Shown: positions 29,816-54,021 of the stretch, piece by piece
Layout of the letters: every line of letters starts with the position of its first letter
Numbering within the stretch: the stretch's first letter is position 1
Source of the DNA: Nitrospirales bacterium
Lineage (GTDB): Bacteria > Nitrospirota > Nitrospiria > Nitrospirales > UBA8639
DNA: 64,000 nt
Direction of reading: 5' to 3'
Assembly (NCBI GenBank): GCA_963422365.1
Contig: OY729426.1
Coordinates: 1,056,001-1,120,000 of the forward strand
Translations under genes and position numbers: made by a program
Notes under the pieces: model-generated
The model's database searches: none
Told to the model about the DNA's origin: nothing
What the model saw: only the letters and a program-made list of their open reading frames with translations

Positions 29816-30777
29816 AGCGTCTCCATAAACTTATCGAGTTGCCAGTAGTTTCCTTCTAATGAAACAGTTCGTTCACCAGCGCCATTTCCTTTTTTGACTG
29901 TGACTTTCGTTTCGCTTGCATTCTCTTCAAATAAACAATATTTGCCAGCCCTATTCAGCTTTTCCGTACAAGAATCTGTTGCCTTTTTTGTGATAATCAC
30001 AATAGGAACCCCTTCTTTGATTGCGTTATCAATCTTGGGTGTCAAATGTTTGTCATTAAAACCGAAGCCAACAACTAAAAAACTGCGTGCTTTCTCAATA
30101 GCGTTGTCCGATTTTCCAATAAGGGTTCTGTATGGCTCTTGGAATGCCTCATCACATTTATTGCGAGCAGGTAACACCATGCCATATTTGAGTGCGTTGA
30201 AATCGTGCTCACACGGTAAATAAAATAGGTCGTTGTTTTCATCAAAAAACCAGTTTAGTGAACCATGAACTTTTATTAAATTTATTATTTTTTGTTCTCC
30301 AAAAGCCTTTGGAGAAAATCTTGACAATGATCTTCCGGTGAATCCATCTGTGAAATTGTCATTGGATTGCGACAGTGCGTATTCCAAAACACGATCATAA
30401 TTAGTCGTCACGATGTCAATTTTACATGGATGAGGGTCGTAAAACTTCTTTATCATTTTGGTTATGGCCTCAAAATAATTTGTATCTTGTATGGATTCCT
30501 TTAGGCAGGCCATATCCCTTTTAAGAACTTTCTCTCTTGTAATCTTTCTGATTTCATCAGTCTTTGTTTGATCTTGAATTTTCCCCAACTCCATTTCTAA
30601 GTCAGAGTCTTCGTTAAGGCTATCCAGGACGGGTTTAAGCTCTTCTTTTAACTCATCCATACTTGGAAGCCCATATGGGATGGTTGCCCCTGAACCCCAA
30701 ATAATTACAGGAGGATTGCTTAGAAAATTTTGGACGAGTTTAGACACATCGTCTTTCTCTTCATCGCTATTACTCAT
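29812..30777 (-). CDS. SIR2-like (SIR2_2) NADase of a Sir2-HerA system
   Basis: WGSGATIPYGLPSM, TTNYDRVLE, KVHGSLNW, GFGFNDKH; 4-nt overlap with herA. Confidence 0.9.
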   Translation of the reverse strand: MSNSDEEKDDVSKLVQNFLSNPPVIIWGSGATIPYGLPSMDELKEELKPVLDSLNEDSDLEMELGKIQDQTKTDEIRKITREKVLKRDMACLKESIQDTNYFEAITKMIKKFYDPHPCKIDIVTTNYDRVLEYALSQSNDNFTDGFTGRSLSRFSPKAFGEQKIINLIKVHGSLNWFFDENNDLFYLPCEHDFNALKYGMVLPARNKCDEAFQEPYRTLIGKSDNAIEKARSFLVVGFGFNDKHLTPKIDNAIKEGVPIVIITKKATDSCTEKLNRAGKYCLFEENASETKVTVKKGNGAGERTVSLEGNYWQLDKFMETL

Positions 30778-38753: not shown

Positions 38754-39543
38754 GTCTTAATCCCTTCTTCATCAGGTCTTCACTTCAGACCTTGCGCCCC
38801 CGCCCTACGGGCGGGGGGGCGATAAATGCTGATTAATATTCCGCCTCACGCGCGGCGATCATCTCGCGGGCCTCATCCCATTTGGGTTGCCGGCGCGTGG
38901 CGGCACCCACGCGTTGGATGATGGCCTCGGCATTGCGTTTGCGTTCCAGAGTCCCCCGGCCGCCGCCGGCGATCTCAAGCGCAAACTCGCTGAGCGAGCG
39001 CCCCATCCGAGCGCTATGGCACCCCACGCAGGCGGTGACCAGATTGCTCGGATGAGTATTGCCGTCACCGCCGGTCACATCGTCGATGAGCAGGCCGGCA
39101 CACTCCTCATCCTCGATCACCTGCCCGCAGTATACGCAGGCCAGGTGATCCCGCAGGTAGATGCTAGTTATGGTGGTTATATCCATTGTTTCCCCCTTGC
39201 GCCCCCCGCCCTACGGTCTTAATCCCTTCTTCATCAGGTCTTCACTTCAGACGAAGAATAAAAATCGGGAACGGGCTCTCATCGACCGTCTTAATCCCTT
39301 CTTCATCAGGTCTTCACTTCAGACCCGGATCGGCCGTTTAATGATTAGCATAAAATTAAGAAGGTCTTAATCCCTTCTTCATCAGGTCTTCACTTCAGAC
39401 TCCGCCGAGAATCAGAGAGGGACGTGCACGGGATCGTCTTAATCCCTTCTTCATCAGGTCTTCACTTCAGACAATGGAGATTAAAACTTATGTGAGTACC
39501 GGGAGAGTCTTAATCCCTTCTTCATCAGGTCTTCACTTCAGAC
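38754..39543 (-). CRISPR. CRISPR array: 6 identical 37-nt repeats, spacers of 425, 35, 39, 35 and 34 nt
   Basis: GTCTTAATCCCTTCTTCATCAGGTCTTCACTTCAGAC at 38754, 39216, 39288, 39364, 39436, 39507; the minus strand ends ATTAAGAC (type III handle), so the leader is on the right next to cas2. Confidence 0.97.
38833..39186 (-). CDS. HNH-fold zinc-binding protein embedded between two CRISPR repeats
   Basis: RDHLACVYCG...IDDVTGG...NLVTACVGCH; RBS AAGGGGG 5 nt before the ATG. Confidence 0.8.
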   Translation of the reverse strand: MDITTITSIYLRDHLACVYCGQVIEDEECAGLLIDDVTGGDGNTHPSNLVTACVGCHSARMGRSLSEFALEIAGGGRGTLERKRNAEAIIQRVGAATRRQPKWDEAREMIAAREAEY

Positions 39544-39719: not shown

Positions 39720-40043
39720 TCACGGTCGGTCGGGGGGATCTTGGATCAGTGCCAATCGACTCTGTCCGTTTTCGATCAGTAACGTGTTTGTGGCAAAAAA
39801 CTGTTGTCCCAATAGGGTCACGTCACCGGTGGCGGGCAACGGGTACGCCCGAACGTCATCGTGTTTTGGATCAATCATTGCCTCAAGCTCAGACAGGATG
39901 TGATTGAGTCGGGAGTGACTCAGCGGCGCGGCGAAGACGGAATACTGTACCCGACAAGCGTGCTGACACAGATATCTGGCGACCCGTCCCAGGCGCTTGG
40001 GGTCTGCAATATCGTACGCAACAAGATACAATCGCTGACTCAT
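39720..40043 (-). CDS. cas2: Cas2
   Basis: YLVAYDIADPKRL, RVQYSVF, DDVRAY. Confidence 0.93.
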   Translation of the reverse strand: MSQRLYLVAYDIADPKRLGRVARYLCQHACRVQYSVFAAPLSHSRLNHILSELEAMIDPKHDDVRAYPLPATGDVTLLGQQFFATNTLLIENGQSRLALIQDPPDRP

Positions 40044-40804
40044 ACGAAATCCACCAAAAAGCCTTGCAGACGGCTGGTCAGCCTGCGCGCAATTCGCGCC
40101 AACCGGTGACTGTGTTGCTCAAATAATGCCACAACGTCACGATCATTGATACGCTGGTGTGCCGGCCGCCGGCTTAACCATTCACTCAGGGGCAGTTGCA
40201 AGGACAGGGATAATAAATCAGCAGAATCAAGGGGTATGTTCAGCCGTTGCTCAAGATAGAGACTGCGTTCGGCACTCAGCCCTGCTTGCTGTAAGACCTC
40301 GTTGGCGAGATTGCTGCACAACCCATGCAAGCGTCGTTGCAGATCACTTCGCTGGCGCGTGTCAACGAATTGTTCCATATGGCGATCCAGCCTGGCACGG
40401 ATTTGCTTGAGCGAGAACTGGTCCGATTGCACGTTCAATGTGCGGCACAGTGCTCGTCGAGCACGGCTGGCAGCCGCAGCGACCCAGATCTGATAACGGT
40501 CAGGCCAGTCGGGGCGGTCCAGGAGATCACGCAGGTGGGTAAACAAGTCATCGTTCGCTCGGCTACGACCAAACACATGCGCCCTGATTGCGCCGTCATG
40601 CCGTAAGAAGGTGACGGTAATGCCACGCTCTGCGCAAGCAAGCAGAGTGGATGTCGCGCATTCCGGTGACCCGGAAATGACAAGACGGGACATACGGCGC
40701 AAGGGGACAAGCACGGCAGCCTGCCCTGATGCCGCGATACTCAAGGATGGGCCATCTAGGTTGATCTGCATCCCTTTCCGACCATGAATGTAACAGGGCT
40801 TCAT
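40040..40804 (-). CDS. Degenerate Cas1-like protein (N-terminal beta domain kept, catalytic motifs absent)
   Basis: DGPSLSI..VPLRRMSRLVISG..LLACAERGITVTFL resembles the adjacent Cas1 N-terminus; no EG/H/DxxE motifs. Confidence 0.7.
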   Translation of the reverse strand: MKPCYIHGRKGMQINLDGPSLSIAASGQAAVLVPLRRMSRLVISGSPECATSTLLACAERGITVTFLRHDGAIRAHVFGRSRANDDLFTHLRDLLDRPDWPDRYQIWVAAAASRARRALCRTLNVQSDQFSLKQIRARLDRHMEQFVDTRQRSDLQRRLHGLCSNLANEVLQQAGLSAERSLYLEQRLNIPLDSADLLSLSLQLPLSEWLSRRPAHQRINDRDVVALFEQHSHRLARIARRLTSRLQGFLVDFV

Positions 40805-41766
40805 GCGTCATCTGCCTCGGGTAACTCAGGGGCAGCATCCAGCAGGGCCCGTGCGATCTGATAGCTGCGAAGACGCAGATACCGTCGCCATGGCCCGGCA
40901 CATGCGTCATACTGTTCAAAAAACGTCCGGCGGCCGTTTTTGTTGAGCAGGCAGCTTTGTCCTTCGCGGCTGAAGTGGCCCGTGCTCAACAGACGTTGGC
41001 GAAATACATGCCAGACCCAGCGGTCGACCCGCGGCCGCAATGGTTCAATCACGTCACAGGCCAAAGATTGGCGGCCATACGCAGGCTCATGGTAAAACCC
41101 CAGCAGCGGATCGAGTCCTGCTCCATGACAGGCACGTACCGCTTCATGGTGTAGCAGGGTATACACCAGCGACAGGCAGGCGTTCACCGGGTCGCGCGGG
41201 GGACGACGATTCCGCCCGGTGAAGTCCAGACTGCCGGCAAACAGGTGCTGAAACCCGGCAAAGTACATGGCCGCTGCCGACCCCTCCAGACCACGCAACA
41301 CGTCCATGCTCACGGCCTTGTGCACGGAGGGCACGAGAGAAGCCAGCCCTGTTGTCGCGGTACTGAGCGGGTGACGAAGATCGAGTCGGCGTAACAGCGC
41401 GGACTGTAATAGTTTGTGCTGCGCGGTGATTTTCGCCTGCACCAGTTGCCGGCTCCAGTTCAGGCGTCGTTCGGTATCATGCCAGAGCTGATACTGGGCA
41501 AGCCGGCGTCGTGCATCATTATGACCCGGACACAAGAGTTGCAGACGTCGCTGACCTGCGCGCCCGTGCATGATGGTGACGCCTATGCCGCGCTGCCCCA
41601 GTGTTCCCAGCAGACGGCTGTCCAACGTCACCTGACTGTGGATGACGACCCGATCCAGCATTGTGAGCGGCACACTCTGTGGTCCTGCATCGGGTCGCCG
41701 GACCAGCAGTCGTTTCCCGTCCAGTTCGAGTTGCAAGTCTTTGCGATCAATGCATAACGTCAGCAT
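40801..41766 (-). CDS. cas1: Cas1 integrase
   Basis: LRGLEGSAA, RNRRPPRDPVNACLS, GFYH, SLACDVIEPLRP. Confidence 0.97.
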   Translation of the reverse strand: MLTLCIDRKDLQLELDGKRLLVRRPDAGPQSVPLTMLDRVVIHSQVTLDSRLLGTLGQRGIGVTIMHGRAGQRRLQLLCPGHNDARRRLAQYQLWHDTERRLNWSRQLVQAKITAQHKLLQSALLRRLDLRHPLSTATTGLASLVPSVHKAVSMDVLRGLEGSAAAMYFAGFQHLFAGSLDFTGRNRRPPRDPVNACLSLVYTLLHHEAVRACHGAGLDPLLGFYHEPAYGRQSLACDVIEPLRPRVDRWVWHVFRQRLLSTGHFSREGQSCLLNKNGRRTFFEQYDACAGPWRRYLRLRSYQIARALLDAAPELPEADDA

Positions 41767-41771
41767 CGCGT

Positions 41772-42053
41772 TCAGCCGATGTAACAGTAGGATTGATCTT
41801 CGGGTGCGACACCCTTGCCCAAGGTCTTGATGTCATCCGCAGAGGCCAGCGGCAGGAGCAGAAACCGATCCTCATCCGGATCGATGATCCTCCCGATGGT
41901 CTCGACCAACTCCCGCCGCTCGGTGCCGGTCAGAAAACACTCGAAGACGGATTTCTGGCGGCCACAGGCAAACCCTTTCAATACATACAGGGCAGCCCGC
42001 AGGCGGCTGGTGTTGCTGATGTCATAGGCGGCAAGATAGAGTCGGCGTTTCAT
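41772..42053 (-). CDS. cas2: Cas2
   Basis: YLAAYDIS, QKSVFEC, EDRF. Confidence 0.93.
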   Translation of the reverse strand: MKRRLYLAAYDISNTSRLRAALYVLKGFACGRQKSVFECFLTGTERRELVETIGRIIDPDEDRFLLLPLASADDIKTLGKGVAPEDQSYCYIG

Positions 42054-42092
42054 GCCGACAAGTTAAACATATGGAAGCGCACTTTGCCGGAT

Positions 42093-42138
42093 TGGCAAGC
42101 TTGTCGTGGCTGGACAGTTGCTTTGAAGACTCTATAAT
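42093..42138 (+). promoter_or_regulatory. Palindromic box plus sigma70-like promoter for the CARF-RelE gene
   Basis: TGGCAAGCTTGTCG 42093-42106; TGGACA 42111-42116; TATAAT 42133-42138. Confidence 0.65.
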
Positions 42139-42175
42139 GAAAGCAGCATCTCACATTGAACGTGGAGGAAGTCAT

Positions 42176-43291
42176 ATGAAACCTAAGTTTGTGCTGTCAC
42201 TTTGCGGGACCAGTCTGCTCACGAATGGCGCAACAGGCTATGAACGGGCTCTTATCACTCGTCACGCCAACGTCAAAGACGAACAAGATATCAAGCATGA
42301 GGAACGCGAAAGCCTGCGAGCCAGGATTGACCACGTATACTCAACATTACAAGAAGCCGCTGAACACCAAATCACAGACATGTCGGCAGAGCTGAATGCG
42401 CTGTACAAACTGTATGACGGCCAACTCGGTCAGGCTGTCAACGACCAGCATTGGCTGCTGTGTACTGATACGTGGCTGGGGAAACAAACAGGGAAACTGA
42501 TACAAGAACAACTGGAACGTCGTGGGATTTCCTCCGTGCAAATTTGTCAGCCAACGGATCTGCGTACAGAGGAACTTCTCACCTTTCAAAGCGCGTTGTC
42601 AGATCTGGTGAAATGGTGTGACGAAACGATAGAACCCTGTCGGTCTAGCTGCCATATCGTTTTCAATCTCACGGGTGGCTTTAAAAGCATTCAGGGGTTT
42701 CTGCAAACGCTGGCGATGTTTTATGCTGATGAAGCCATCTACGTCTTTGAATCCGGCACGGAATTATTACGGATACCCAGATTGCCGATCAGGCTGGACA
42801 CGGACGACGTGGTACGTCAACACCTTCATGTCTTCAGGCGTTTGGCCAAGGGTCTCGGTCTTGATGAACAGTGCCAGCTTGATGATATTGATGCTATTCC
42901 AGAGACGTTATTGCTTCGCCTTGATAACGATGTCGATTTGTCGCTTTGGGGAGATTTGGTCTGGAAGCAGACGTATAAAGATGTTTATGGTGAAAAACTC
43001 TGGCCTTCTCCAAGCAAAAAAATCATCTACGGCGAAAAATTTGAGGCAAGTGTTGCATCACTTCCACCTGACCGGATCGGGCAGGTCAACAGTCGTCTGG
43101 ATCAGCTTGCCGTCCATCTTGAACGTGGAGGGCACAATTTGTCTTCCCTGGATTTCAAACCGCTGAAGGGCAGGATTAAAAACTATACTCATGAGCTTGA
43201 CGCCTGGGCCGACCAAGACGCCAAAAGGATGTATGGACGCCTTGAAAATGGTGTTTTTACAGTCGAGGTCCTTGATGAGGCTTTGCATTAA
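42176..43291 (+). CDS. APE2256-family CARF protein with C-terminal RelE-like domain (Cami1-like effector)
   Basis: CGTSLLTN, SAELNAL, TDTWLG, FNLTGGFKS, YVFES; RelE-like tail LDFKPLKG..HELDAW..AKRMYG; RBS GGAGG. Confidence 0.82.
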   Translation: MKPKFVLSLCGTSLLTNGATGYERALITRHANVKDEQDIKHEERESLRARIDHVYSTLQEAAEHQITDMSAELNALYKLYDGQLGQAVNDQHWLLCTDTWLGKQTGKLIQEQLERRGISSVQICQPTDLRTEELLTFQSALSDLVKWCDETIEPCRSSCHIVFNLTGGFKSIQGFLQTLAMFYADEAIYVFESGTELLRIPRLPIRLDTDDVVRQHLHVFRRLAKGLGLDEQCQLDDIDAIPETLLLRLDNDVDLSLWGDLVWKQTYKDVYGEKLWPSPSKKIIYGEKFEASVASLPPDRIGQVNSRLDQLAVHLERGGHNLSSLDFKPLKGRIKNYTHELDAWADQDAKRMYGRLENGVFTVEVLDEALH

Positions 43292-43416
43292 GTTTATGAA
43301 GCCAGAAAAAACATATCTGCTATTCGTGAGAGGGGAGGATCGGGATTATCCCGTTATACCGGGCTTGAACCGGTATCCCGTTACGAGTATCACGCGCGAA
43401 AGCCTGAGCGAGAGCC

Positions 43417-43725
43417 TTACGCCGAGTCTTTCTTGACGACTTTCGTGATCGTGTATTCTTCCAGTCGCGCACCGAATCTCCGCATGTCTTCCGTGCTTAA
43501 CTCCATGCCACGGTGAGTGGCAGGTATATCCATGGATAAGTGAAAATACCGTCCGCCGCGCTCGCACACGGCTGCTGCTACGTGAACGGGCAGTGTGCCA
43601 AGGACCTTATCACCGGGAACAATCGTTGAAAGATCGAGATGCTCGACCATCGCGTCGACTGAAAACCCTTCCTGTTCAGTCCAGGCTTTGGCGCCGGTGT
43701 GACGAGTGATGAAAATCGTGCCCAT
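43417..43725 (-). CDS. csx16: Csx16 (VVA1548 family), putative ring nuclease
   Basis: FITRHTGA..W, HLD, GDKVLGTLPVHVAA, RGMELS. Confidence 0.9.
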   Translation of the reverse strand: MGTIFITRHTGAKAWTEQEGFSVDAMVEHLDLSTIVPGDKVLGTLPVHVAAAVCERGGRYFHLSMDIPATHRGMELSTEDMRRFGARLEEYTITKVVKKDSA

Positions 43726-43961
43726 ATCAGTCGTCCATCAATGGGACATCTTCTCCAGGATCGGCAAAGGTGTGGGGCATTGGCAACATTACTTGCACTC
43801 TTGATGGAAGTCGTTTGTATAAACACCATTCAGGCATATGATGCCGGGCGATCTGCTTCTTCAATGACTCAGCGGGGATGCTCAGATTTGATGGCTTCAA
43901 TCGGGTTCCAGTTCACTGCTTTGGTCTCCCTAATCACCCATAACTGATTTTTGCTCAGCCC

Positions 43962-44110
43962 ATGATTAGAAGCTATCTCATAAATGGATGAAGGCATTTT
44001 TCTGACCGCCCGACCTTGCTGTCATCCTGAAGTGCAGGCGCTGCTTTTTCAGTGAGCGATTCTTCGTCGCCCGCTCCTCAGAATGACATATTGAGACAGC
44101 TTCTAATCAT
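43962..44110. mobile_element. MITE-like element, copy 2
   Basis: 19-bp terminal inverted repeat with one mismatch (ATGATTAGAAGCTATCTCA / TGAGACAGCTTCTAATCAT); internal GTCATCCTGA/CTCAGAATGAC. Confidence 0.7.
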
Positions 44111-44179
44111 CACGGGCGCCTCTATAGGCCATAGAGAGTTTTTCCTATCACTCGGCAAAACAGTGGAGGTACGTTGCCT

Positions 44180-44353
44180 CTATTTTGTTTGCCAGGCTCA
44201 TTCCGTACAATACTCAAATCGTTGAATCATCCCCTCTTTCGCTCATTGATCTTATGGACGATCCCGACTCCTTTCCGCCGCTTCTTGGAGCAGAAAGTAC
44301 GCTCTCTTAAAATTATCAAATCGATATTGCCAGCGTTGCTTTTCTTCCGTCAT
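44180..44353 (-). pseudogene. HI0074-family HEPN (nucleotidyltransferase substrate-binding) remnant
   Basis: MTEEKQRWQYRFDNFKRAY..stop..EGMIQRFEYCTE stop AW. Confidence 0.7.
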
Positions 44354-44372
44354 CCAGCCGCCTCAATTCCTT

Positions 44373-45152
44373 TCATTGCAAAACGCATTCTTTCAATTTT
44401 TGGATGCTTGCTTTGCGCTCTTTGCCCTTTTTTCCTTTCAACATTCCTAAATGACGATAGATACTCTCCGCCAAATTACAGAGTTCAATTCTGGCTTCTT
44501 TGGGCCAGTTGGCTGCACTGGTTATCAGTGCAGCCAAACGACCCGGAACACGGCCTTGCTTCGTGAGCGCGTTATTGGCTTGATCTTGATCAAACCATAT
44601 TTTTAACTCTTCAATAGCGCGTTCTTCCTCGGTCATGGCGGCGAGCCGCTGTTGCTTTTCCCGTTCTGCCTGCTGTTCAGCTAATTTCGCCTGCTTTTGT
44701 GCTTCTTCTTGTTGCTTGCGCTGGGTTAGTTTCTCCTGCAAGGCTGTGATGCGACGCCACTGTGTTTCCAACCATTGTGGCTTTGAATGACCAATCTGTT
44801 CGATTAAATTCTCCAGTACGACAGGCGGTTTGTCCGGCGGGTCAATTTCAATCAACAACCAGCCGAACGGCACCATTTCCGATCGTGAATCTTGTGCGTC
44901 GGCGGCCAGCCATAAGGTACGAGGTTTCGGCTCATCTACGGACTTTTTATTGCCGACCATTATCTTAATGCTTCTGACACCATTTAAAGTAACCGCCTCA
45001 GCGCCACTATGCCGCCCCACACGCAATAACATCATTGCTTTGTTTGATTCCAGTAGTGGTGTGATGCTGGCCAGCAATCTGTGGATGCGCTGTTCCCAGT
45101 CAGGCTCGACATAACGTCTTTGTCCGATGATTGTTATTTCCTGCTCCAGCAA
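44373..45152 (-). pseudogene. C-terminal half of a second Csm5-type RAMP with coiled-coil tail
   Basis: LLRVGRHSGAEAVT, PRTLWLAA, PFGWL; lacks the N-terminal LTPVHxG motif and a clear start. Confidence 0.7.
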
Positions 45153-45305
45153 GGCTTTTTAATATATGTAGTTATATGTAGTCTATTTCAATCTGATCAT
45201 CAACCTTGACGAAACAACCATGTTTCCAACCTGAGACATTTCTCACATATCACATGCTGTCGTTGGTGCCGTTGAAAATTTACACCAAACTTAATCCGGC
45301 GTGCA

Positions 45306-46739
45306 TCAATTTTCTCCTTTATAAATTTGCAAGGCCTTTTTAATCGACTTGCCTGGTGGTGGGTTATCCCACCACCCCTTTTCCTGCCAGCGTGCCTGAA
45401 TGTCTGCTAACGCAGTCTGTTTTAGGTCACCGTCTTCAATTGCTTGCCAGGATTTTGCTAGTGGTTGGCCACGCAGGGCTTCATCAGCTGAAGCATGGTG
45501 CTGTTCTTGAATGGCCGCAATTTGTTCTTCCACCCATGGGCTGCGCACGACGTCTGTCGAACTGGTTTTTTGACTTGCGGCACGTATTTCTGTCTCATCC
45601 GACCAGGGTGACAATCTTATCCAGCCCAGTGGTAAACGGGGATTGCCTTGTACGGCTAATCTCCTGGTTTTTGGAAAATTTTCAGATTTTCCGAGACGAT
45701 AAAGTCCACGCATTTTTTCCTGCGTTTCTGCATCTTGCCAACCGCCCGTCATTCCCCGCCAACCACTGCCCCAAGCCAATCTTAGATAAGCGGCATTCTC
45801 TGTTTGTTGAATGGTTTCCCGTAATGTTTCGCATTGTTCGACGATTGTTTGCTGCTTGTAACGCTGAAAAAATTTTATTTCCTGTTCGAGGATATGTCGT
45901 GCGTGACCGTTGAGCTTTGCACAGAGTCCGGCAAAATCTGCCGGTAATAACTCAAGACTGTGCTGAGGCGCGTACCAACGATTTGGGTCTTTCAGCAGGA
46001 ATCGATCCCACTGCAGTGACATCGCTGCGATTGCGGTAGGTGCTAGAGTCTCGGCGTAAATACCGGTTGCGTCCTGCCACCTGTTCTCGTTTTTCCTGTT
46101 AGACATATTGCGCCATTTCGCGAACTGTCTGTCATTGGATCTGGTGATATTTAGCCAACGAACGTCGGCAAGACACAGATCACTGGTTTGGAAGTTAGCA
46201 TCACCTACGTGCAGAGCACGCAGCAGATCTTTGTTTGGATCAGAACCAAAGACATATTTTGTGATAGCAGTTGCTGCCATCTTAGGAGAACAGGTAGGCT
46301 TCTTCTGCGTATTATCCCACCGTGGAAGACGGCTTGCTATCCCACTCGGTCTGCTGTGCAGCCATGCGGCTAACAGTGCGGTGCGGATAGCGCCTTTTAT
46401 TGAACTGCCCGGCAGGTAGGGATGCAACATGGCATCTTTGATAAACTCCCTGAATTTCTCCGGCAGGGCCATTTTCCCCTGCAAATAGGGAAGTGGGTAG
46501 CCGTAGTATGTGCCTGCAAGCCTGACAGAATCACTCAGTTTGGGATTTGCTTGCAGTAGAGTATCAAGTGCTGTATGACCCGATGCAATGGCATTAAAAG
46601 TTCGGTTCTGATCGACAACAAAAACCTGTCCTCGTTGCTCCACGTAATCAAGTTCACGATATAATTCTTCCCCTGAGCCAACGTGTACCGGTGTCAATAT
46701 TTCAACGGCAAGTTGAATCGTTTCCGTTTGTCCTTTCAT
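45306..46739 (-). CDS. csm5: Csm5
   Basis: LTPVHVGSG, YLPGSSIKGAIRTA, LRLAWGSGW, FPKTRR, PLGW. Confidence 0.93.
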   Translation of the reverse strand: MKGQTETIQLAVEILTPVHVGSGEELYRELDYVEQRGQVFVVDQNRTFNAIASGHTALDTLLQANPKLSDSVRLAGTYYGYPLPYLQGKMALPEKFREFIKDAMLHPYLPGSSIKGAIRTALLAAWLHSRPSGIASRLPRWDNTQKKPTCSPKMAATAITKYVFGSDPNKDLLRALHVGDANFQTSDLCLADVRWLNITRSNDRQFAKWRNMSNRKNENRWQDATGIYAETLAPTAIAAMSLQWDRFLLKDPNRWYAPQHSLELLPADFAGLCAKLNGHARHILEQEIKFFQRYKQQTIVEQCETLRETIQQTENAAYLRLAWGSGWRGMTGGWQDAETQEKMRGLYRLGKSENFPKTRRLAVQGNPRLPLGWIRLSPWSDETEIRAASQKTSSTDVVRSPWVEEQIAAIQEQHHASADEALRGQPLAKSWQAIEDGDLKQTALADIQARWQEKGWWDNPPPGKSIKKALQIYKGEN

Positions 46740-47728
46740 GAAACAACTCCCGTTCCTATGAAAAAGCCTCTGCCGTCCCGATAGATAGGATGAGGGGATG
46801 CTTTCCCTTCCGGCGTATTGGTAGGTGTAACCTCAACCACCCGGCCGGTGAGGGACCGACGGAACTGACTGCCTTCGGTAAACATGCGCAATCTCAAACG
46901 TCGCAAACCATGATGTGCAATCCATCCTCCTCGACTCATCAGGTTGTAGCTCGATCCTTCAAGCCAAGTCCCTGAAAAATCTGTTGGGGCAGGGCTGACG
47001 AGTGATAACGCAGTAAAAATGCCGTTATCAGTGGTCTTCAACTCAGGAAAATTGTCTGCTTTTTGCCATTCGAAAAAGCCGTTGCCATTGCTTCGGTCTG
47101 CGCCGATGCCACTGTCCCCCAATAAACTGAGCGCAGCCTCGAATCCTTTTCTATCATTATCGTTGCCAAAATGTGCCAGGAAGTATAAGCCCGATTCCGA
47201 GTGGAAGTGTACGCGCCCGAAGTTGAATAATTGCCCCTCCAGCGGGGCACCACTGGCGCGGTCAGTCGCTAGCCTTGGGCGTTCCTCCTGCGCCCATAGC
47301 GTTAATTTTTCTACCTGTTTGCAGATCGCCTTGGGCAAGGCCAGTGTCGATTGAACAATATCGATAGCATCAAGGTTTAGCTGCCAGCCATTTGTCGCGG
47401 TATCGTGCCACAATTCTGGCGCTATCCATTGAATCTTTTTAAGCTTCTTATAGCTGCGCAGGTCTTTATCGGGTAAGTCCGGTGCAGTGCTTCCAATAGG
47501 GCGAGGCAAAAAGTAAGTGTTCTGAAAATAGGGGAATGCCGAACTGAGTAGGAACGGTGGTGCCGCAGCCCGTTCAGTCGCAACATTCGGTTCCAACAGC
47601 GCCCACGCTGATAAAATCGCGGCGCTCAACGTATCCGAGTGAATAAATATCTCGGATTCATCATAGAAATTGTTGCCGCGATTATCGACGTGAAAAGGCG
47701 CTGTAAACTTGAGTTTGTAGCAGTCCAT
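46736..47728 (-). CDS. csm4: Csm4
   Basis: IHSDTLSAA, LSSAFPY, GIGADRSNGNG, MFTEGS. Confidence 0.95.
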   Translation of the reverse strand: MDCYKLKFTAPFHVDNRGNNFYDESEIFIHSDTLSAAILSAWALLEPNVATERAAAPPFLLSSAFPYFQNTYFLPRPIGSTAPDLPDKDLRSYKKLKKIQWIAPELWHDTATNGWQLNLDAIDIVQSTLALPKAICKQVEKLTLWAQEERPRLATDRASGAPLEGQLFNFGRVHFHSESGLYFLAHFGNDNDRKGFEAALSLLGDSGIGADRSNGNGFFEWQKADNFPELKTTDNGIFTALSLVSPAPTDFSGTWLEGSSYNLMSRGGWIAHHGLRRLRLRMFTEGSQFRRSLTGRVVEVTPTNTPEGKASPHPIYRDGRGFFIGTGVVS

Positions 47729-47739
47729 AACAGTTTATT

Positions 47740-48522
47740 TCAGGCAACAGCTTCGGCTTCTGTAGCAGACGGCTTGAATTCATCTGGTATCTTGTAATCC
47801 GACAAATCCGCTTCCTTGTTGCCTGATTTGTATTGTTCCGCAGTCCGTTGGGTCAGTGAAGTCCTAGAAAATTTGACCTGCCCATAACCGCGCGAACCGT
47901 TACCACCGAGTGTATCCGCTTGAACCAGACGCAATCCTTCAAATAGCAGGTTGAGGAAATGCTTCTGATCATCGTCTTCAAGCAAAGTAAGAATGAATTC
48001 GAAATCAAATTCCGCTCCCGCGGGCACACGTTCGATCTGGCGTGGATTTGCGGCGGAGGTAATGCGATCAATCCAGACCTCGGTTTTGACTTCGGTCATC
48101 GGCATATCGGCATTGGGCGCTGAAAGAAGCTTAACTCGACTCGCTTTTGTCAACAGCGCATCACGAACAATCAAACGTGTTGGTTCTATTGAGTCTTCAG
48201 CCGCAACGCCAAATAGTTTGCCTAGCGACGTATCCGACTTCTTCCCCGCCAAGGCTTCCTTCTTCTCACGTATAGAGAAGCCCCCTTCGACGTTCTGGTT
48301 ATTTTCCTCATTTCCCCGAACCCGTTCGAGTAATGCCCTCATTTTGCCCCGTAATGACGAGCCTGGAATATACGGATCATTGGTTAGCGGGTTCCGCACA
48401 ACGACTGAATCGGCGCCACCGATAGCCATGCCGACGGAATTACCTCCGATATGCAACCCGGTTAAAGCTGTCAAATGACCTCGAACAAAAATTTTACTGC
48501 TTACTTTTTTGATGTCAGTCAT
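47740..48522 (-). CDS. csm3: Csm3
   Basis: TGLHIGG, IGGAD, PYIPGSSLRGKMR, PRQIERVPAG, LGGNGSRGYG. Confidence 0.96.
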   Translation of the reverse strand: MTDIKKVSSKIFVRGHLTALTGLHIGGNSVGMAIGGADSVVVRNPLTNDPYIPGSSLRGKMRALLERVRGNEENNQNVEGGFSIREKKEALAGKKSDTSLGKLFGVAAEDSIEPTRLIVRDALLTKASRVKLLSAPNADMPMTEVKTEVWIDRITSAANPRQIERVPAGAEFDFEFILTLLEDDDQKHFLNLLFEGLRLVQADTLGGNGSRGYGQVKFSRTSLTQRTAEQYKSGNKEADLSDYKIPDEFKPSATEAEAVA

Positions 48523-48524
48523 GG

Positions 48525-48926
48525 CTATTTTCCTCCTGCTGCTTTATGGTAAGCGACTATTGCTTCAAAAAATTGGCAAAATCGCTGAAACGATGCTTCA
48601 TCATTGACAGCGTCAATCGCACTATCCATCACCTTTTTCAGCTCTTTCAAACCGTCACCATGCCGGCCTGCTGCATAAGCCAACCTGGTTTTGAGAAGAA
48701 GCACTTCGCGCCGTGTGCGACTTTGCCAGCCAGACATCTCCAGCTTTTTCATATTACCGTATGCATTGCGAATTTGGCTGGTAGTAACTTTTTTAGTTTG
48801 CAGAATTTCTCCAAACCTTTCTGCAAATTGAACCATTTGTTTAGCAGTATCGTCTTGAGCAATGTAGCTTTTAATCTCTTCAGGTGTTGGCATTGGGGTT
48901 TCACCGCTTGATCTATTTGTTGGCAT
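48525..48926 (-). CDS. csm2: Csm2
   Basis: TTSQIRN, RLAYAAGR, FFEAIVAYHK. Confidence 0.95.
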   Translation of the reverse strand: MPTNRSSGETPMPTPEEIKSYIAQDDTAKQMVQFAERFGEILQTKKVTTSQIRNAYGNMKKLEMSGWQSRTRREVLLLKTRLAYAAGRHGDGLKELKKVMDSAIDAVNDEASFQRFCQFFEAIVAYHKAAGGK

Positions 48927-51498
48927 CAGCAGATCTCCTCGTTAAAAATTCGGCCCACCGGGTGGGCAGTTCCAACCATTCAATCGCTGGTCGGATTGAT
49001 TCAGTCCGGCTTTCAGTAATAGTTGCGATCAAATTGTTCAAATCTTCCTCAATAGCAGGGGTGCGACGTGCCACGCGTTTCAGGTTGTAAACCAGACGCC
49101 AGCGCCATTGTTGCCAATGTAACAGTTCACGTATTTCATCTTTCTGTAATTGTCGTTTATCACTGAGCCGTCGGAACTCTTCAACTGCAAGCACGACCGA
49201 GCGTAATCTGTCGAGTATTGCCCGATTCCCGGTTTTTTCAATAATGGTTTCGATTTGCTTTTTTAACGTCAGAGCACGAGGATATTCTTCCCAGCCGATA
49301 GTTATGCCAAGCAGCGAGACAGCATCTTTTTCACGCTTGTTACGTTTCAGTACTTTTGCGCTTGACTCAGCTTCACTAGCCAAATCGGCGGCCCGTGATA
49401 TAGGGTATTTGCCGTCAACCATGATAAGGCCACCAGAAAGTGTAAACACAGGATTGCCTGCGCAATAGCGTTGAAATTCTTGCCGAATTTTATCAGCGAC
49501 ATCCGGCAGCTCATCCCAGGAACCGATGATAAACACATCGTCGCCCCCTGAATAAATAACTTGGCTACGCTTATAAGTTTTGAGCAGCTCCATAAGGTGA
49601 CCGGCAAAAAACAGGTGTAGCTGACGGGATAGAGTAGCCACCCTGGATAATGATCCCATTTCTTCTTCTGTGCCTGTTGCGCTTGGGAATTTGAGTCCAC
49701 GAATGAATATCTCACCCAAGTTATCGACATCCAGACGTAATACACCCATACGTCGAATACCCTTAGCGTTTTTATCAAAATCATCAAATTCCCATGGGGC
49801 TGCTTCTTCTTTGTCGCGGTCCCACCTACCAAGTAACCGAAAACCACTCGCATAACCATGCTGGTTGAATTTCGGATCAGTAATTTGATTGATACGTTCA
49901 TAATAGCTGGCAGCCAGCGAGCGTAACTCACTGAATTCAGGTAAACCATTTTGTTTTGAAACATGAATATGCCAATCCGTACCAGGTAAAGAAATACAAG
50001 CTAATTCCTTTTCCTTGATACTGTCCAAGTCACTTTTCCAAACCCAGAAAAAGGCTTCTGCGTCAGTCAGGCTTTGCCCCAACTTTTGTAAATTATTACA
50101 TTGCTTACAGATTGCTCCATCATCCGTCTGGCTGATTTCGGCATCTTTATCATCCCGGCTACAAACCCTGCACGCGGAGCCGGGAGCAAGTTCTTGCGGC
50201 GTAAAAAAACTATGGTCTTTTTCCAGTAATGGGCGGAAACGCTGCTGCCGGTCACGCATCAGGTTATCATTCGCAGCTTTCCAGCGTTTGCCCATGTTGC
50301 CACTGGCGAAATCTCCACCACATACCGGTGCGATACCGGTGCCGAGAAAAATGTCTCCTTGAAATTCTTTAATCAGAGCCTCATTTATTGCCGCCATCTC
50401 GTCTTTCAATGATTGCTCCAGACAGTCAGGTATGAGCAGGTAAAATTTGCCGCCAGAAGAATAAATGCGGGCAGTGGGGTAGAGTTTAAGTTTCCGTAAT
50501 AAATGTTCCGCAACACCGTCACATAACAGTTGTATATAAAGTGATCGTCCACGTAGACCCTTGGCAGCACCTTTACGGGTAATCTTGTAGATGAAATTCT
50601 GGATACCGGAAAAATCACCACAGACCAGACGCCATTTGTGGGTGGTTTTATCATTAAATGTATCAGGCTGATCAAGTGTGTCATGATGCTGATGATGTAG
50701 AAATAAACCTTCTGCAATAGCTGCCGTAACACGCAAATGGTCATATAACGATATGTCCGGGTGGATGACGTTCGTTGCCGCTGGAACGGTAGTCAAGAAA
50801 CGTTCCATCTGTGCCAGTAGCGTCATCATGAATGAACGCAAAGCGGCCGTTGTGAGTCGGTCATATTCGGGCACCTTTTCCATTGCATTCAGCAAACCAT
50901 CAGCCAGTTTCTGATAATCGTCCGATAAGTCCGTTGGACTGATCCAGACTGGATTTTCTCCAGCCTCTATCTTGGTCATAGGCGGATCAAATGCAGTTGT
51001 CGGCAATGAAAATATATCCCGGCCAGTTGTTAAGGGGTTAAGGCCTGCCCGAAACTCGGTAGGTTTGGAAACACCATCTAAATTGATGCGTTCAAGCATG
51101 GGTTCCAGAAGAGTACGGCGATGAATATTTCGTTGATAAAAATTTCCCTGTTCACGTTCGGCACTGGCGAAATGATCAGCTGCCTGAATAAGACGTTCCA
51201 TGTCCGTAGAGGCCACATGATGATGTGCGGCCATATTGATCCAGTTGGCTGCTGCTTGCGGATCATGTTGTTCTGATGGCTGTAAAATGGGAACGATACG
51301 ACAGAGCTCTTCACAAAAACGACGGGTATGTAATACGTGCAGGTGACTCCAGTAGCCACCACTCCGATGCCAGGGACAGTCCTGTTGCCTTTGGTCCTCA
51401 TTAGCACGATATTCACCAAGCCGATTTGCTCGCTCGAAAAATTTGCCTATGTCGTGCAATAAAGCGCCAAATACAATGTGGTCATGCGGTTCCATCAT
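48913..51498 (-). CDS. cas10: Cas10/Csm1 with HD nuclease and active cyclase motif
   Basis: ALLHDIGK, ISLYDHLR, GDFSGIQNFIY, LRGRS, DVDNLG, YSGGDD; start at ATG 51498 behind an AGAAGG RBS. Confidence 0.97.
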   Translation of the reverse strand: MMEPHDHIVFGALLHDIGKFFERANRLGEYRANEDQRQQDCPWHRSGGYWSHLHVLHTRRFCEELCRIVPILQPSEQHDPQAAANWINMAAHHHVASTDMERLIQAADHFASAEREQGNFYQRNIHRRTLLEPMLERINLDGVSKPTEFRAGLNPLTTGRDIFSLPTTAFDPPMTKIEAGENPVWISPTDLSDDYQKLADGLLNAMEKVPEYDRLTTAALRSFMMTLLAQMERFLTTVPAATNVIHPDISLYDHLRVTAAIAEGLFLHHQHHDTLDQPDTFNDKTTHKWRLVCGDFSGIQNFIYKITRKGAAKGLRGRSLYIQLLCDGVAEHLLRKLKLYPTARIYSSGGKFYLLIPDCLEQSLKDEMAAINEALIKEFQGDIFLGTGIAPVCGGDFASGNMGKRWKAANDNLMRDRQQRFRPLLEKDHSFFTPQELAPGSACRVCSRDDKDAEISQTDDGAICKQCNNLQKLGQSLTDAEAFFWVWKSDLDSIKEKELACISLPGTDWHIHVSKQNGLPEFSELRSLAASYYERINQITDPKFNQHGYASGFRLLGRWDRDKEEAAPWEFDDFDKNAKGIRRMGVLRLDVDNLGEIFIRGLKFPSATGTEEEMGSLSRVATLSRQLHLFFAGHLMELLKTYKRSQVIYSGGDDVFIIGSWDELPDVADKIRQEFQRYCAGNPVFTLSGGLIMVDGKYPISRAADLASEAESSAKVLKRNKREKDAVSLLGITIGWEEYPRALTLKKQIETIIEKTGNRAILDRLRSVVLAVEEFRRLSDKRQLQKDEIRELLHWQQWRWRLVYNLKRVARRTPAIEEDLNNLIATITESRTESIRPAIEWLELPTRWAEFLTRRSADANK

Positions 51499-51531
51499 TA
51501 GCGTAATAACCTTCTCTTGATCATCGTCTTG

Positions 51532-51579
51532 AGTGTAATCGATTTCCAGATGCAATTGTTCGACGGCAAGCTTGCCGTC
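51532..51579 (-). promoter_or_regulatory. Palindromic box plus -10 element upstream of cas10
   Basis: Perfect GACGGCAAGCTTGCCGTC 51562-51579; TACACT (minus strand) 51537-51532. Confidence 0.65.
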
Positions 51580-51583
51580 TCCG

Positions 51584-52867
51584 TCATGTTTCCAGAAACC
51601 GTACCTGTTCTTTTTTCAGCGTTAACCCTTTCAACCGGCACCGCGACTCTGGAATCACGCCGATAGGACTGATCAGATAAGGGGTGGCCGGTTCCTTGCC
51701 CAGGCTTCTTTTAAGAAGCCCATTGATTTTGCTCGTTTTCTGATCCATAAAATCCTGGTCCATGCCACGTCTTAAACTGTCACGTGCATTCTCATAATCT
51801 GCGCTGTACTCACCGACAATGTGGACATATTCTTCGAGGTATTCTTCGCTGACGTTTTCCTGGGTCCAGTGTATGCCCGGAGTGCCTGCCAGTAGACGAC
51901 GGGCAAACCAGGCGTAAAAGGCGAAAAGACTGGGAGTAAGGGGCACAGGGTGGTCGCCGCAGTGAATGGTCTTGTTGTTGCTGTCGAGGATCAGTTTCGG
52001 CGGATTAACGTTGCGTTGTGTTCGGGAGACGGTTTCCGAATAACTCATGCTTTCGCCCAGTATGCTGCTATCCAGGTGCCCGCGCAGTCGCACAAAGGGG
52101 ATGTCTGCCAGCGTGATCTCGGCGTCACGGGTATGGATGGGGCGTTTGTTGTGGTCTCGCAGGACTTTCGGTTTGGGGGGCGGGTAGTAAAATTGTGGGT
52201 GTGACTCAAACGGTGGTGAGACCAGTACGTGGGACAGGCGATCCTGCTCGCGCCCGAACAGACTCATGGCGTAGCCCAGGTAGAACCCCATGGTCTTGCG
52301 GCCACCGGCGATAGAGGCGTGGATGATGGTCTGTGGATCAGCAGTCAGGCGTCGCACGATAGCGGTGATGGTATCGGCAGCGGTTTCATTGTCGGCAAGA
52401 CTGCGAATGTCGTCCAGTGGTTTCTTGTCATCCGCAGGGATCTGATGGATGGTCTCTCCGTCGAATCGGATGCCACCTGGATCGATGTCAAGATCAGCGC
52501 AGAGCCGATAAAAATGCTGTTCTTCGGGGTCGCTTTCGAGGAGCGTCAGGCGTACCCTGTCGGCTCCTTCGGCGGTGGTGATGATATGAATGGCCGTCGG
52601 GATGAATGGATCGTCTCGCGTGGCCAGTGCATAGAAGGTTTCGGTAATCACCTGTGGTGATAAACCGGCGGCACACAGCAAGATGCGTTGTGAGCAACCG
52701 ATGGGTGAGCGTGCCGCGTTTGTCACTGGATACGCCTGTCTCGGATTTGATCCAGAATATCTTTCGGTACAAGGCTGGATACGGGATGACGGCTTTTCAG
52801 TGCAGGCCTCGTTCCGGTGTCGGTGGATTGCATGACGGTTTCCATGAACGATGGTCGTTCTAGGCAA
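51584..52867 (-). CDS. NE0113-family CARF protein (Csm6/Csx14-type, putative ring nuclease) with winged-helix-like C-terminus; real start probably near 52726
   Basis: GLSPQVITET, IHIITT, DDIRS, HASIAGGRKTMG, DRLSHVLV, IPFVRLR. Confidence 0.88.
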   Translation of the reverse strand: MPRTTIVHGNRHAIHRHRNEACTEKPSSRIQPCTERYSGSNPRQAYPVTNAARSPIGCSQRILLCAAGLSPQVITETFYALATRDDPFIPTAIHIITTAEGADRVRLTLLESDPEEQHFYRLCADLDIDPGGIRFDGETIHQIPADDKKPLDDIRSLADNETAADTITAIVRRLTADPQTIIHASIAGGRKTMGFYLGYAMSLFGREQDRLSHVLVSPPFESHPQFYYPPPKPKVLRDHNKRPIHTRDAEITLADIPFVRLRGHLDSSILGESMSYSETVSRTQRNVNPPKLILDSNNKTIHCGDHPVPLTPSLFAFYAWFARRLLAGTPGIHWTQENVSEEYLEEYVHIVGEYSADYENARDSLRRGMDQDFMDQKTSKINGLLKRSLGKEPATPYLISPIGVIPESRCRLKGLTLKKEQVRFLET

Positions 52868-52873
52868 GCCCTG

Positions 52874-53854
52874 TTAATCGACGCTGATGATTGCATACTT
52901 GCCCAGCCCCATGCTGGTGTTTTTGCCCGCGTGAGTCCATTGGCCGAGCCAGATGTAGTGCCAGAAAGGCACGAGTGCGTTGCTTCCGGAACAGCCGCCG
53001 GCGCTGACCTCGAACGTCACCGTGCCCAACAGTCCGCCAAGCTGCATCAGGCTGTCCTGACGGCTGGAATAGCGGGTCCAGTCATGCCAGCGCAGTTCAT
53101 GACGTGCCACGGGTATCGCTTCAGCTGCCCGGGTCAGCGCGGCAAAGTCGGTTTCCAGCGGCGTGTCGGTGTGAAACGCGGTGAGCAGGGAGAGACGCCG
53201 CAATAACGTCGAAAAGAGGGTCTTGAACGTCAACCCGTTCGGCGTGATAAGGTGATCGCGGGCTTTCACGCGCAAGGGCGTGAGGAACTCGATTTTCAAT
53301 TGAGCCGGACAATCCGGCGGATTGCGACACTCCGGAGGTTGCGGCTGGAGATTTCCTCCTGGCCGGTAGATTGACAACCATGCATCCTGCACGTGCTGTT
53401 GAACCTCAAGTAACGTGAGTGTTCCGCGTTGTTTGCCAATACCTCGTTGGGCGGCTTGGTCAAGCGCGTGAATGATATAGGGCAGATGACGATTCCCACG
53501 TCCGAACAGCGTCATCTCCAAGCTGTGCTCGGTCTCCGCCGCCAGGGGACCGTGCATCGTGTCGCCCGGATTCAGGACGAACGGGTGTGGCGCGGCGTTG
53601 TATTTGCGCAGTTTGCCGACGCCTGGATCCGGCGGTGTCTCAAAAATATAGGGGTAGATACAACTGCGATACAACAGGCAGGGTTCACAGTGCGGTTCGC
53701 GGGTCACGCAGACCAGTCTTTTGAGGCTGTTGCCGAAGGCGCCGCGCCAAGCGGAACCGGAATAGTCCGGCAGGCGCATGGAGCCGGCTGTTCGAAACCT
53801 GAACCGATAGTGCGCCAAGGGTAATGATGGTTCGCTGAATGATGCTGTATTCAT
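52874..53854 (-). CDS. cas6: Cas6 crRNA processing endoribonuclease
   Basis: YSGSAWRGAFG, Cys cluster, PHPFV, WTRYSSRQ, HAGKNTSMGLG G-loop. Confidence 0.95.
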   Translation of the reverse strand: MNTASFSEPSLPLAHYRFRFRTAGSMRLPDYSGSAWRGAFGNSLKRLVCVTREPHCEPCLLYRSCIYPYIFETPPDPGVGKLRKYNAAPHPFVLNPGDTMHGPLAAETEHSLEMTLFGRGNRHLPYIIHALDQAAQRGIGKQRGTLTLLEVQQHVQDAWLSIYRPGGNLQPQPPECRNPPDCPAQLKIEFLTPLRVKARDHLITPNGLTFKTLFSTLLRRLSLLTAFHTDTPLETDFAALTRAAEAIPVARHELRWHDWTRYSSRQDSLMQLGGLLGTVTFEVSAGGCSGSNALVPFWHYIWLGQWTHAGKNTSMGLGKYAIISVD

Positions 53855-53973
53855 AGAAGTTTCCCGTTTGTTGCAACAACGTAACGGGTTACCCAAAGTT
53901 GTTCAACGCGAAAATTCTATATGTTACGATAGGTTATGGAGATAATGTGTTGAACCCCTTGCTTCAGGCGTTT

Positions 53974-54021
53974 ATTGTAGAATGAAACGCTGCTGCGGAA
54001 ACGGGTGGCAAGCTTGCCGTG
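53974..54021 (-). promoter_or_regulatory. Palindromic box plus -10 element upstream of cas6
   Basis: TGGCAAGCTTGCCG 54006-54019; TACAAT (minus strand) 53979-53974. Confidence 0.65.

Follow-up and report, generated by a model that had tools for sequence, protein, structure and literature searches.

The CRISPR (short palindromic repeats that are clustered and regularly interspaced) locus of type III-A found in a 64,000-nucleotide (nt) stretch of a Nitrospirales genome (GCA_963422365.1, contig OY729426.1, positions 1,056,001–1,120,000; this whole stretch is hereafter called the window) carries a palindromic box, GGCAAGCTTGYC, at its cas promoters. The box is real and conserved and, judging from its distribution among sequenced loci, is most likely the operator of a CARF–OmpR-type activator of bacterial type III loci. 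An earlier note on this DNA proposed that a dimeric activator drives processing, interference, effector and probably adaptation genes as a single regulon and left the binder unnamed. We amend this reading by naming a candidate, the protein of the NE0113 family (TIGR02584/PF09623, CARF5; 380 aa) encoded at 51584–52726 on the minus strand, between the second and the third box. With moderate confidence, we regard the whole combination (box and spacing, NE0113 operator, and a CARF–winged-helix activator responding to cyclic oligoadenylate, cOA) as the best overall explanation.

Three copies of GGCAAGCTTGYC were found in the window (42094–42105, 51565–51576 and 54007–54018) and a fourth is absent, as the earlier note had reported; the chance mean is 0.01, and none of 100 shuffled windows reached the observed count. 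In the complete genome (2,495,695 bases in a single contig), where about 0.2–0.3 occurrences per 12-mer are expected under a fifth-order Markov model, the exact box is again represented only by these three copies. It is thus restricted to the cas locus and is not a motif common genome-wide, which was the doubt that the note wanted settled by such a scan. One-mismatch variants of the perfect 12-mer occur at 11 further places, and nine lower-scoring combinations of box and -10 hexamer, counted regardless of intergenic position, lie beyond the locus. Box 1, TGGCAAGCTTGTCG (42093–42106, no strand assigned, as for the other two), is located between the divergent genes cas2 and cami1, the latter encoding a CARF7–RelE effector, and likely serves both directions. 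Box 2 lies directly after the NE0113 stop codon, upstream of cas10, inside a perfect 18-nt palindrome that is indeed present at 51562–51579. Box 3 (54006–54019) precedes cas6 and the NE0113 gene, so that autoregulation of the latter is predicted as likely.

The distance of 33 nt from box centre to -10 hexamer claimed in the note is correct for TATAAT of cami1 (42133–42138, plus strand, predicted start about 42145), TACACT of the cas10–csm operon (51532–51537, minus strand, start about 51525) and TACAAT of the cas6–NE0113 unit (53974–53979, minus strand, start about 53967). Also in agreement with it, the -35 positions of cas10 and cas6 are poor (AACAAT and GTTTCC, respectively); that of cami1, TGGACA with a 16-nt spacer, is fair. 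For box 1 the note gave a -10 hexamer on the cami1 side and overlooked TAACTT on the cas2 side (42060–42065, minus strand), which lies 34 nt away from the box centre and is followed 6 nt later by the ATG of cas2. The cas2 promoter at this box would have a leaderless layout, with a predicted start at 42053.

To see the box outside the source genome, we compared the top 80 genome loci of the NE0113 protein, which by record title belong to Gamma-, Beta- and Alphaproteobacteria, Nitrospirales, Acidobacteria, Bacteroidia and others. Nitrosomonas, Thiocapsa, Thioalkalivibrio and Comamonas nitrativorans are among the carriers available in culture. The box was detected with at most one mismatch at 140 sites in 64 of the 80 loci, against a mean of 4.4 and a maximum of 19 for 59 control palindromes of like make-up; its wider consensus is YSRCAAGCTTGYSR. 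The hexamer TAnnnT on the locus strand was found 47 times at offset 33, six times at 32 and 11 times at 34, with no more than seven occurrences elsewhere between offsets 10 and 59, and ATG codons peak at 45–46 nt from the box, marking leaderless starts. Thus, in homologous type III loci, where the earlier note had suggested looking, the box and its 33-nt spacing recur across phyla and the -35 is not conserved. At 327 distinct sites of clade 1, the group of NE0113 proteins that accompanies this box (see below), five or more of six matches to TTGACA were found in three cases (2.5 in shuffles) and four of six in 39 (22 in shuffles), and an extended -10 (TG) is present in 35. A spacing fixed to 1 nt next to a missing -35 is a hallmark of activators that contact the polymerase. 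Since the spacing at clade-1 sites is held to 1 nt beside a degenerate -35, which corresponds to a class II-like pattern, a polymerase-contacting activator is suggested, and the dimeric activator of the note fits the recurrent geometry, from which we infer activation.

The same peaks bear on the possibility that the palindrome is an RNA hairpin, a terminator or a recombination or repeat element. Box 2, situated behind a stop codon, is able to fold into a 7-bp stem, and in one congener the box has been duplicated together with the NE0113 3' end around inserted genes. The boxes, however, lie upstream of predicted starts, and neither the strand-specific -10 peak at 33 nt nor the ATG peak at 45–46 nt would be expected of such an element. 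The 120 matches to the box pattern in viral contigs look chance-like: their offsets (61, 38 and 21 at 32, 33 and 34 nt) show no peak at 33, and they have no cas neighbours. No NE0113 homologue was found in these contigs. We consider the probability of a hairpin or repeat element practically negligible.

We next asked whether the box accompanies the NE0113 gene in genomes selected by cas10 alone. Three samples were used. The first comprised 65 genomes (80 stretches) from the order that includes Thiocapsa, the second 38 genomes from the Zoogloea-containing family, and the third 42 of 51 further genomes belonging to the phylum of the window (G032 and eight others were left out, four of these eight lacking the gene). 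Related genomes in these samples are not independent and the assemblies are often fragmented. The NE0113 gene, with partial and broken matches included, is present in 56/65, 34/38 and 36/51 of the cas10-bearing genomes and in 0/15 genomes that had no strong match to cas10. With a box matrix trained on the first 80 loci, a few of whose genomes are also in the test set, the combination of box and -10 was detected in 77 of 93 genomes bearing a clade-1 gene (44/56, 30/34 and 3/3), in three of 24 without the gene (2/9, 1/4 and 0/11) and in none of 28 with a more distant clade; three permuted matrices matched zero to two genomes per group. All 25 loci of gene-negative genomes encode a Cas10 with the GGDD motif, so the box is not simply a marker of cyclase-active systems. 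When the 40 commonest protein clusters were compared, the box was tracked best by NE0113 (phi 0.46, next 0.24), which is present in 54/75 box-positive and 5/25 box-negative loci (100 loci of at least 15 kb).

The box could instead be bound by another Cas protein or by a global regulator of the host, with NE0113 simply co-inherited. This is compatible with the three box-bearing genomes without a detected NE0113 gene and with the joint inheritance of locus genes. On the other side, the source genome has the exact box only in its cas locus; within the window's phylum the box follows the clade-1 gene (3/3, against 0/28 for the distant clade and 0/11 without the gene); it spans both III-A and III-B loci; and no other common cluster tracks it equally well. 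The sole WYL match of the genome lies outside the window, about 65 kb from box 3, and as a single and distant match it was rejected as the binder; it makes up the C-terminal portion of a protein of 461 aa (L007:559-1944) that by eye resembles an AbiEii-type nucleotidyltransferase. LexA, sigma54 and DriD sites, compared by eye, do not fit the box. Another binder thus appears very unlikely, and that the box is the operator of the NE0113-family protein is, on the sequence evidence, highly probable.

The distant homologues from the window's phylum (clade 2) have a different recognition helix and four invariant cysteines in the winged helix. In a protein alignment these residues (C275, C283, C286 and C289) mark the clade that uses a tandem box, and they likely form a zinc site, as predicted. 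Loci of clade 2 do not contain the first box. Instead, 16 of the 28 carry AAATATTTC-N-GAAATATTT (at most three mismatches), which was found elsewhere in two of 11 gene-negative loci and in none of 201 clade-1 loci; eight shuffled palindromes occurred in zero to two loci. The tandem box, GMAAYRTTKC-N-GMAAYRTT, consists of two GMAAYRTTKC units spaced 11 bp, which is also the period of pho boxes, and the core of the first box, GCAAGCTTGC, shares with it the frame GMAA-NN-TTKC. The centre of the downstream unit is located 33–34 nt from the -10.

A quick tree with midpoint root, its careful search unfinished, was built from 63 rows (62 of 168 proteins plus that of the window) and splits into two clades (SH-aLRT, Shimodaira–Hasegawa-like approximate likelihood ratio test, 99). 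The first type of box accompanies 41/42 rows of clade 1 and 0/21 of clade 2, and the tandem box 0/42 and 15/21, respectively. The same division was seen in 80 held-out metagenome loci sorted by profile score, near-duplicates retained: the 45 clade-2 loci carry the clade-2 box in 34 cases and the clade-1 box in one, and the 35 clade-1 loci carry their own box in 30 cases and the other in none. Offsets of the held-out clade-2 boxes were 33 nt in 25 cases and 34 nt in 10, with no more than five at any other value. A geometry kept while both the protein helix and the DNA word changed is what would be expected of a factor and its site.

It should be mentioned that a palindrome screen of six loci lacking the 19-mer (L212–L214, L235, L237 and L245) revealed no shared element; in L213 and L214 a GC-richer tandem resembling that of clade 2, judged by eye, follows the gene. 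Three closely related clade-1 loci (L051, L159 and L161) contain a variant box with A replaced by G at the second core position and a common helix YFSSTKSKL, possibly a specificity variant. Co-variation of residues and bases within clade 1 was suggestive and confounded by kinship and duplicate rows, and it was not used.

The protein itself belongs to a large family, with at least 5546 relatives among 8000 candidates scored. It exceeds the cut-offs of TIGR02584 (244.2 vs 80.65 bits) and PF09623 (156.5 vs 23 bits) and matches the PADLOC model CARF5--CARF (E 1.1e-125). NCBIfam names the family 'ring nuclease Csm6', which differs from the regulator role predicted here. The full-length model (predicted local distance difference test, pLDDT, 91.3) suggests an N-terminal CARF fold at about residues 13–237, not a receiver domain, and an OmpR/PhoB-type winged helix at about 243–378. 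The best structural matches of the CARF fold were Cad1, Csm6 and Crn1 ring nucleases, including Sso2081 and Sis0455, and the pocket motifs GxSPQ (GLSPQ) and GGRK are conserved in both clades. When the C-terminal 145 residues were modelled from 72 homologues, a single winged-helix domain was obtained (pLDDT 95.3), the top 22 structural matches of which are all OmpR/PhoB-type DNA-binding domains (BaeR, Z 8.8, root-mean-square deviation 3.2 over 100 aligned residues; GlnR, 8.8; CadC, 8.7); no MarR-like or Csa3 chain was among the 50 matches listed. All 24 matches in a PDB profile search belong to the OmpR/PhoB family (best, RstA, E 3.4e-4). Pfam gave no Trans_reg_C match for any of the 72 members, so the domain would be a divergent form of the OmpR/PhoB type; leads from an ESM Atlas search with the C-terminal part were all below 0.9. 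This putative assignment draws on the agreement among weak-to-moderate signals. Family searches gave no HEPN match for the NE0113 protein, and its model has no HEPN-like nuclease tail.

To outline the putative regulon, the longest downstream frame was taken for each of 351 site-strands. These frames were NE0113 (73, inflated since 80 loci were centred on NE0113), RAMP family (33), Cmr4/Csm3-type (32), cas10 (29), cas6 and cas2 (23 each), cas1 (15), csm2 (12), Card1 and cmr3 (seven each), csx16 (five), TIGR02221 Csx1-type and Cas8b-like (four each), and none in 24 cases. The box occurs in III-A as well as III-B loci, a -10 is found on both sides of 20 of 331 boxes, and 14 of 21 box-led cas2 genes have the leaderless layout. 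In none of the 351 cases does the box lead into a CRISPR array, and none was found in the array leader of the window. Besides, the box precedes Cas8b-like (type I-B) genes in four cases (L094:15136-16917 and three similar ones) and RhuM/Fic genes in four, hinting that it may control other defence genes besides type III.

Close relatives narrow the set of conserved outputs. The strict pattern of box plus -10 was found in three of 101 genomes, namely the source genome and its congeners G023 and G032, both with the same cas locus. The cas6 arm (box 3) has the 33-nt distance in G023, G032 and G027; for the cas10 arm (box 2) it is 33 nt in G023 and 32 nt in G032. On the cas2 side, 46 nt separate the box centre from the ATG both in the window and in the three congeners examined (G023, G032 and G027), with a degenerate -10 in G032 and G027. 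The cami1 start lies about 400 nt away in G023 and G032. Because the cas2 arm is kept in the three congeners and the cami1 arm is not, the conserved outputs are adaptation, interference and processing, and control of the effector by box 1 appears to be particular to the source genome. The single regulon of the earlier note is supported, in that box and spacing recur across phyla ahead of cas6, cas10, csm/cmr, cas1/cas2 and effector genes, with the amendment that control of cami1 is local. In G023 (L008:13673-14488) two boxes precede cas10, the 3' end of the NE0113 gene and the box being duplicated around inserted small genes; the spot adjoining the box seems to take insertions.

Several observations weigh against the proposed role of NE0113. 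Three gene-negative genomes (G885 with four sites, G201 and G119) bear the box, a fourth (G385) has a loose match to the clade-2 box, and 16 of the 93 genomes with the gene lack the box; many of the assemblies sampled are fragmented. Whole loci move together, and any locus gene could co-vary with it. The clade split is a single evolutionary contrast on the tree, and six of the 21 clade-2 rows have no match to the tandem box. No cami1-side -10 at 32–34 nt was found in any of the three congeners. As to the fold, the BaeR score is only moderately above the stated background of the structure tool, and Foldseek returned the OmpR/PhoB family with no match at E 0.001 or better. Clade-2 promoters retain a fair -35 (T 78%, T 78%, G 68%, A 57%), and since they keep TTGA, activator dependence is less clear in this clade. 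Finally, DNA binding by archaeal Csa3a in vitro is described as non-specific and independent of cyclic tetraadenylate (cA4) (PMC8699464, PMC8844856), so that a layout of CARF and winged helix-turn-helix is no guarantee of ligand-switched binding.

The mechanism that we propose is as follows. A CARF-held dimer, assumed by analogy with CARF proteins generally, would set two winged helices on the 14-bp site. With the -10 placed at -12 to -7, the site centre falls at about -45.5 and its end about 3 bp before the -35 position, from where the dimer would recruit sigma70 polymerase to promoters without a good -35 in a class II-like manner. A repressor at the same place, released by cOA, is the reverse possibility. 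Csa3b is reported to repress some cas genes (PMC8844856), and clade-2 and cami1 promoters have a usable -35. The box, however, is clear of both -35 and -10, its spacing stays within 1 nt across phyla, which steric repression would probably not need, and clade-1 promoters, having neither -35 nor extended -10, would be weak even if unrepressed. We therefore consider repression unlikely and activation by NE0113 probable.

The weakest step of the proposed mechanism is the next one, in which cA4 made by Cas10 upon infection would bind the CARF pocket and raise activation. cA4 is the likely signal of the locus, because Cami1-type effectors are activated by it (PMC11229360) and Csx16, a product of the locus, degrades it (PMC12409355). 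The same protein might bind and activate without being switched on by cOA: it may be constitutive, its CARF domain serving to dimerise or to degrade cA4, or cA4 may switch it off. This would agree with the family name 'ring nuclease Csm6', with the Crn1 ring nucleases Sso2081 and Sis0455 among the CARF matches, with the unchanged binding of Csa3a in the presence of cA4, and with the established need for Csm complexes before infection, hence for basal activation. GxSPQ and GGRK, kept in both clades, fit a ligand role, the sign of which they do not give. We find such cOA-independent activation somewhat unlikely and slightly favour an NE0113 protein switched on by cOA. Positive feedback of this kind would cover CRISPR RNA processing, interference, adaptation, NE0113 itself and some effectors, and would be ended by Csx16 and possibly also by ring-nuclease activity of the CARF domain.

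The locus surrounding the boxes is organized as follows. On the minus strand the order is cas6 (52874–53854, PF10040), the NE0113-family gene, cas10/csm1 (48913–51498, with an HD motif and a GGDD cyclase motif), csm2, csm3, csm4 and csm5 of type III-A (45306–48926) and csx16 (43417–43725), whose family comprises cA4 ring nucleases. Past csx16 lie the divergent gene of the Cami1-type CARF7–RelE effector (42176–43291, plus strand; PADLOC CARF7--CARF_RelE, E 1.9e-125), the adaptation block of cas2, cas1, a second Cas1-like gene and another cas2 (39720–42053, minus strand), and an array of six 37-nt repeats (38754–39543, minus strand). The second Cas1-like gene (40040–40804, minus strand; 254 aa), situated between cas1 and cas2, is absent from G023 and G032; clusters resembling this short gene were seen in 13 other loci. 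The last 'spacer' of the array (38791–39215) is 425 nt long and encloses a whole frame of 117 aa (38833–39186, minus strand) that weakly matches the HNH portion of IscB (E 7.7e-4). This segment is flanked by a near-identical 20-nt GC-rich direct repeat, is single-copy in the genome and was unmatched in the phage collection and the viral contigs. A broken remnant of an HI0074-type HEPN gene lies at 44106–44353 (minus strand); in G023 the gene is intact and has a nucleotidyltransferase partner. The neighbouring 259-aa frame (44373–45152, minus strand), without family matches, resembles the C-terminal half of proteins of about 550 aa in other cas10 loci (35–37%) and a 283-aa frame in G026 (58%). 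About 8 kb from the array, adjoining a RhuM gene, a SIR2–HerA defence pair was revealed (28118–30777, minus strand; PADLOC E 1.5e-112 and 5e-229).

Among known systems, NE0113 would work most like Csa3a and CAPPa of Sulfolobales (PMC8699464, PMC8844856), yet it is another family. In both, CARF is fused to a winged helix, the palindrome is found only at CRISPR promoters, where it keeps a constant distance from core elements, and motif and protein co-occur; activation of adaptation genes, predicted for NE0113, would be a further likeness. Csa3 has a MarR-like helix and acts in archaeal type I-A loci at TATA/BRE promoters through the motif TCCC-N8-GGGA, whereas the NE0113 protein, encoded in bacterial type III loci, joins CARF5 to a domain of the OmpR/PhoB type. 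Unlike the CAPPa site, its box precedes the sigma70 -10 of interference, processing and adaptation genes, and not arrays. With OmpR/PhoB activators such as PmrA (PMC10570014), PhoB, BaeR and CadC/ToxR it shares the DNA-binding fold and a poor or replaced -35. It differs from them in that its input is a CARF domain instead of a phosphorylated receiver and in that the clade-1 inverted repeat is centred at about -45.5, lying not over the -35 position but further upstream. The likeness to Crn1 ring nucleases is, according to the model, limited to the CARF fold, and in place of the C-terminal HEPN RNase of Csm6/Csx1 a winged helix is predicted. In bacterial type III CRISPR, cA4 is coupled to transcription by CalpL–CalpT–CalpS (PMC11229360). 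This system involves proteolytic release of an extracytoplasmic function (ECF) sigma factor; it is rare, CalpL having been counted in 17 of 1113 loci. NE0113, in contrast, would be a one-component system, and its gene is present in most of the cas10-bearing genomes sampled above.

Direct regulation of transcription by NE0113 was predicted in 2014, in one sentence of PMC4012209. Our literature searches, whose coverage excluded most subscription papers, revealed no paper on the box or on the NE0113 family as an activator, and no NE0113 operator, regulon or OmpR-type fold in print. Ring-nuclease calls in PMC12409355 were limited to 250 aa, predicted transcription factors were set aside in PMC11229360, and Csa3 was, as of 2022, the only characterised non-nuclease CARF effector (PMC9704534).

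The proposed role of NE0113 bears on how type III systems turn on and on a possible feedback of cOA on cas transcription and on the acquisition of spacers. The model case, Csa3a, showed non-specific binding in vitro; NE0113 is a common bacterial family whose putative operator is sharply defined, whose promoter geometry is fixed and which falls into two natural classes of specificity. If our interpretation is true, a widely used annotation ('ring nuclease Csm6') would have to be corrected, type III loci run from foreign promoters would miss a regulatory layer, and a promoter made cA4-responsive by a single protein would serve well as a sensor part. More tentatively, with a probability that we put a little short of even, an alarm signal would feed back positively on interference, on processing and on the acquisition of spacers, and the clade-specific operators would allow the NE0113 regulon to be predicted from sequence alone.

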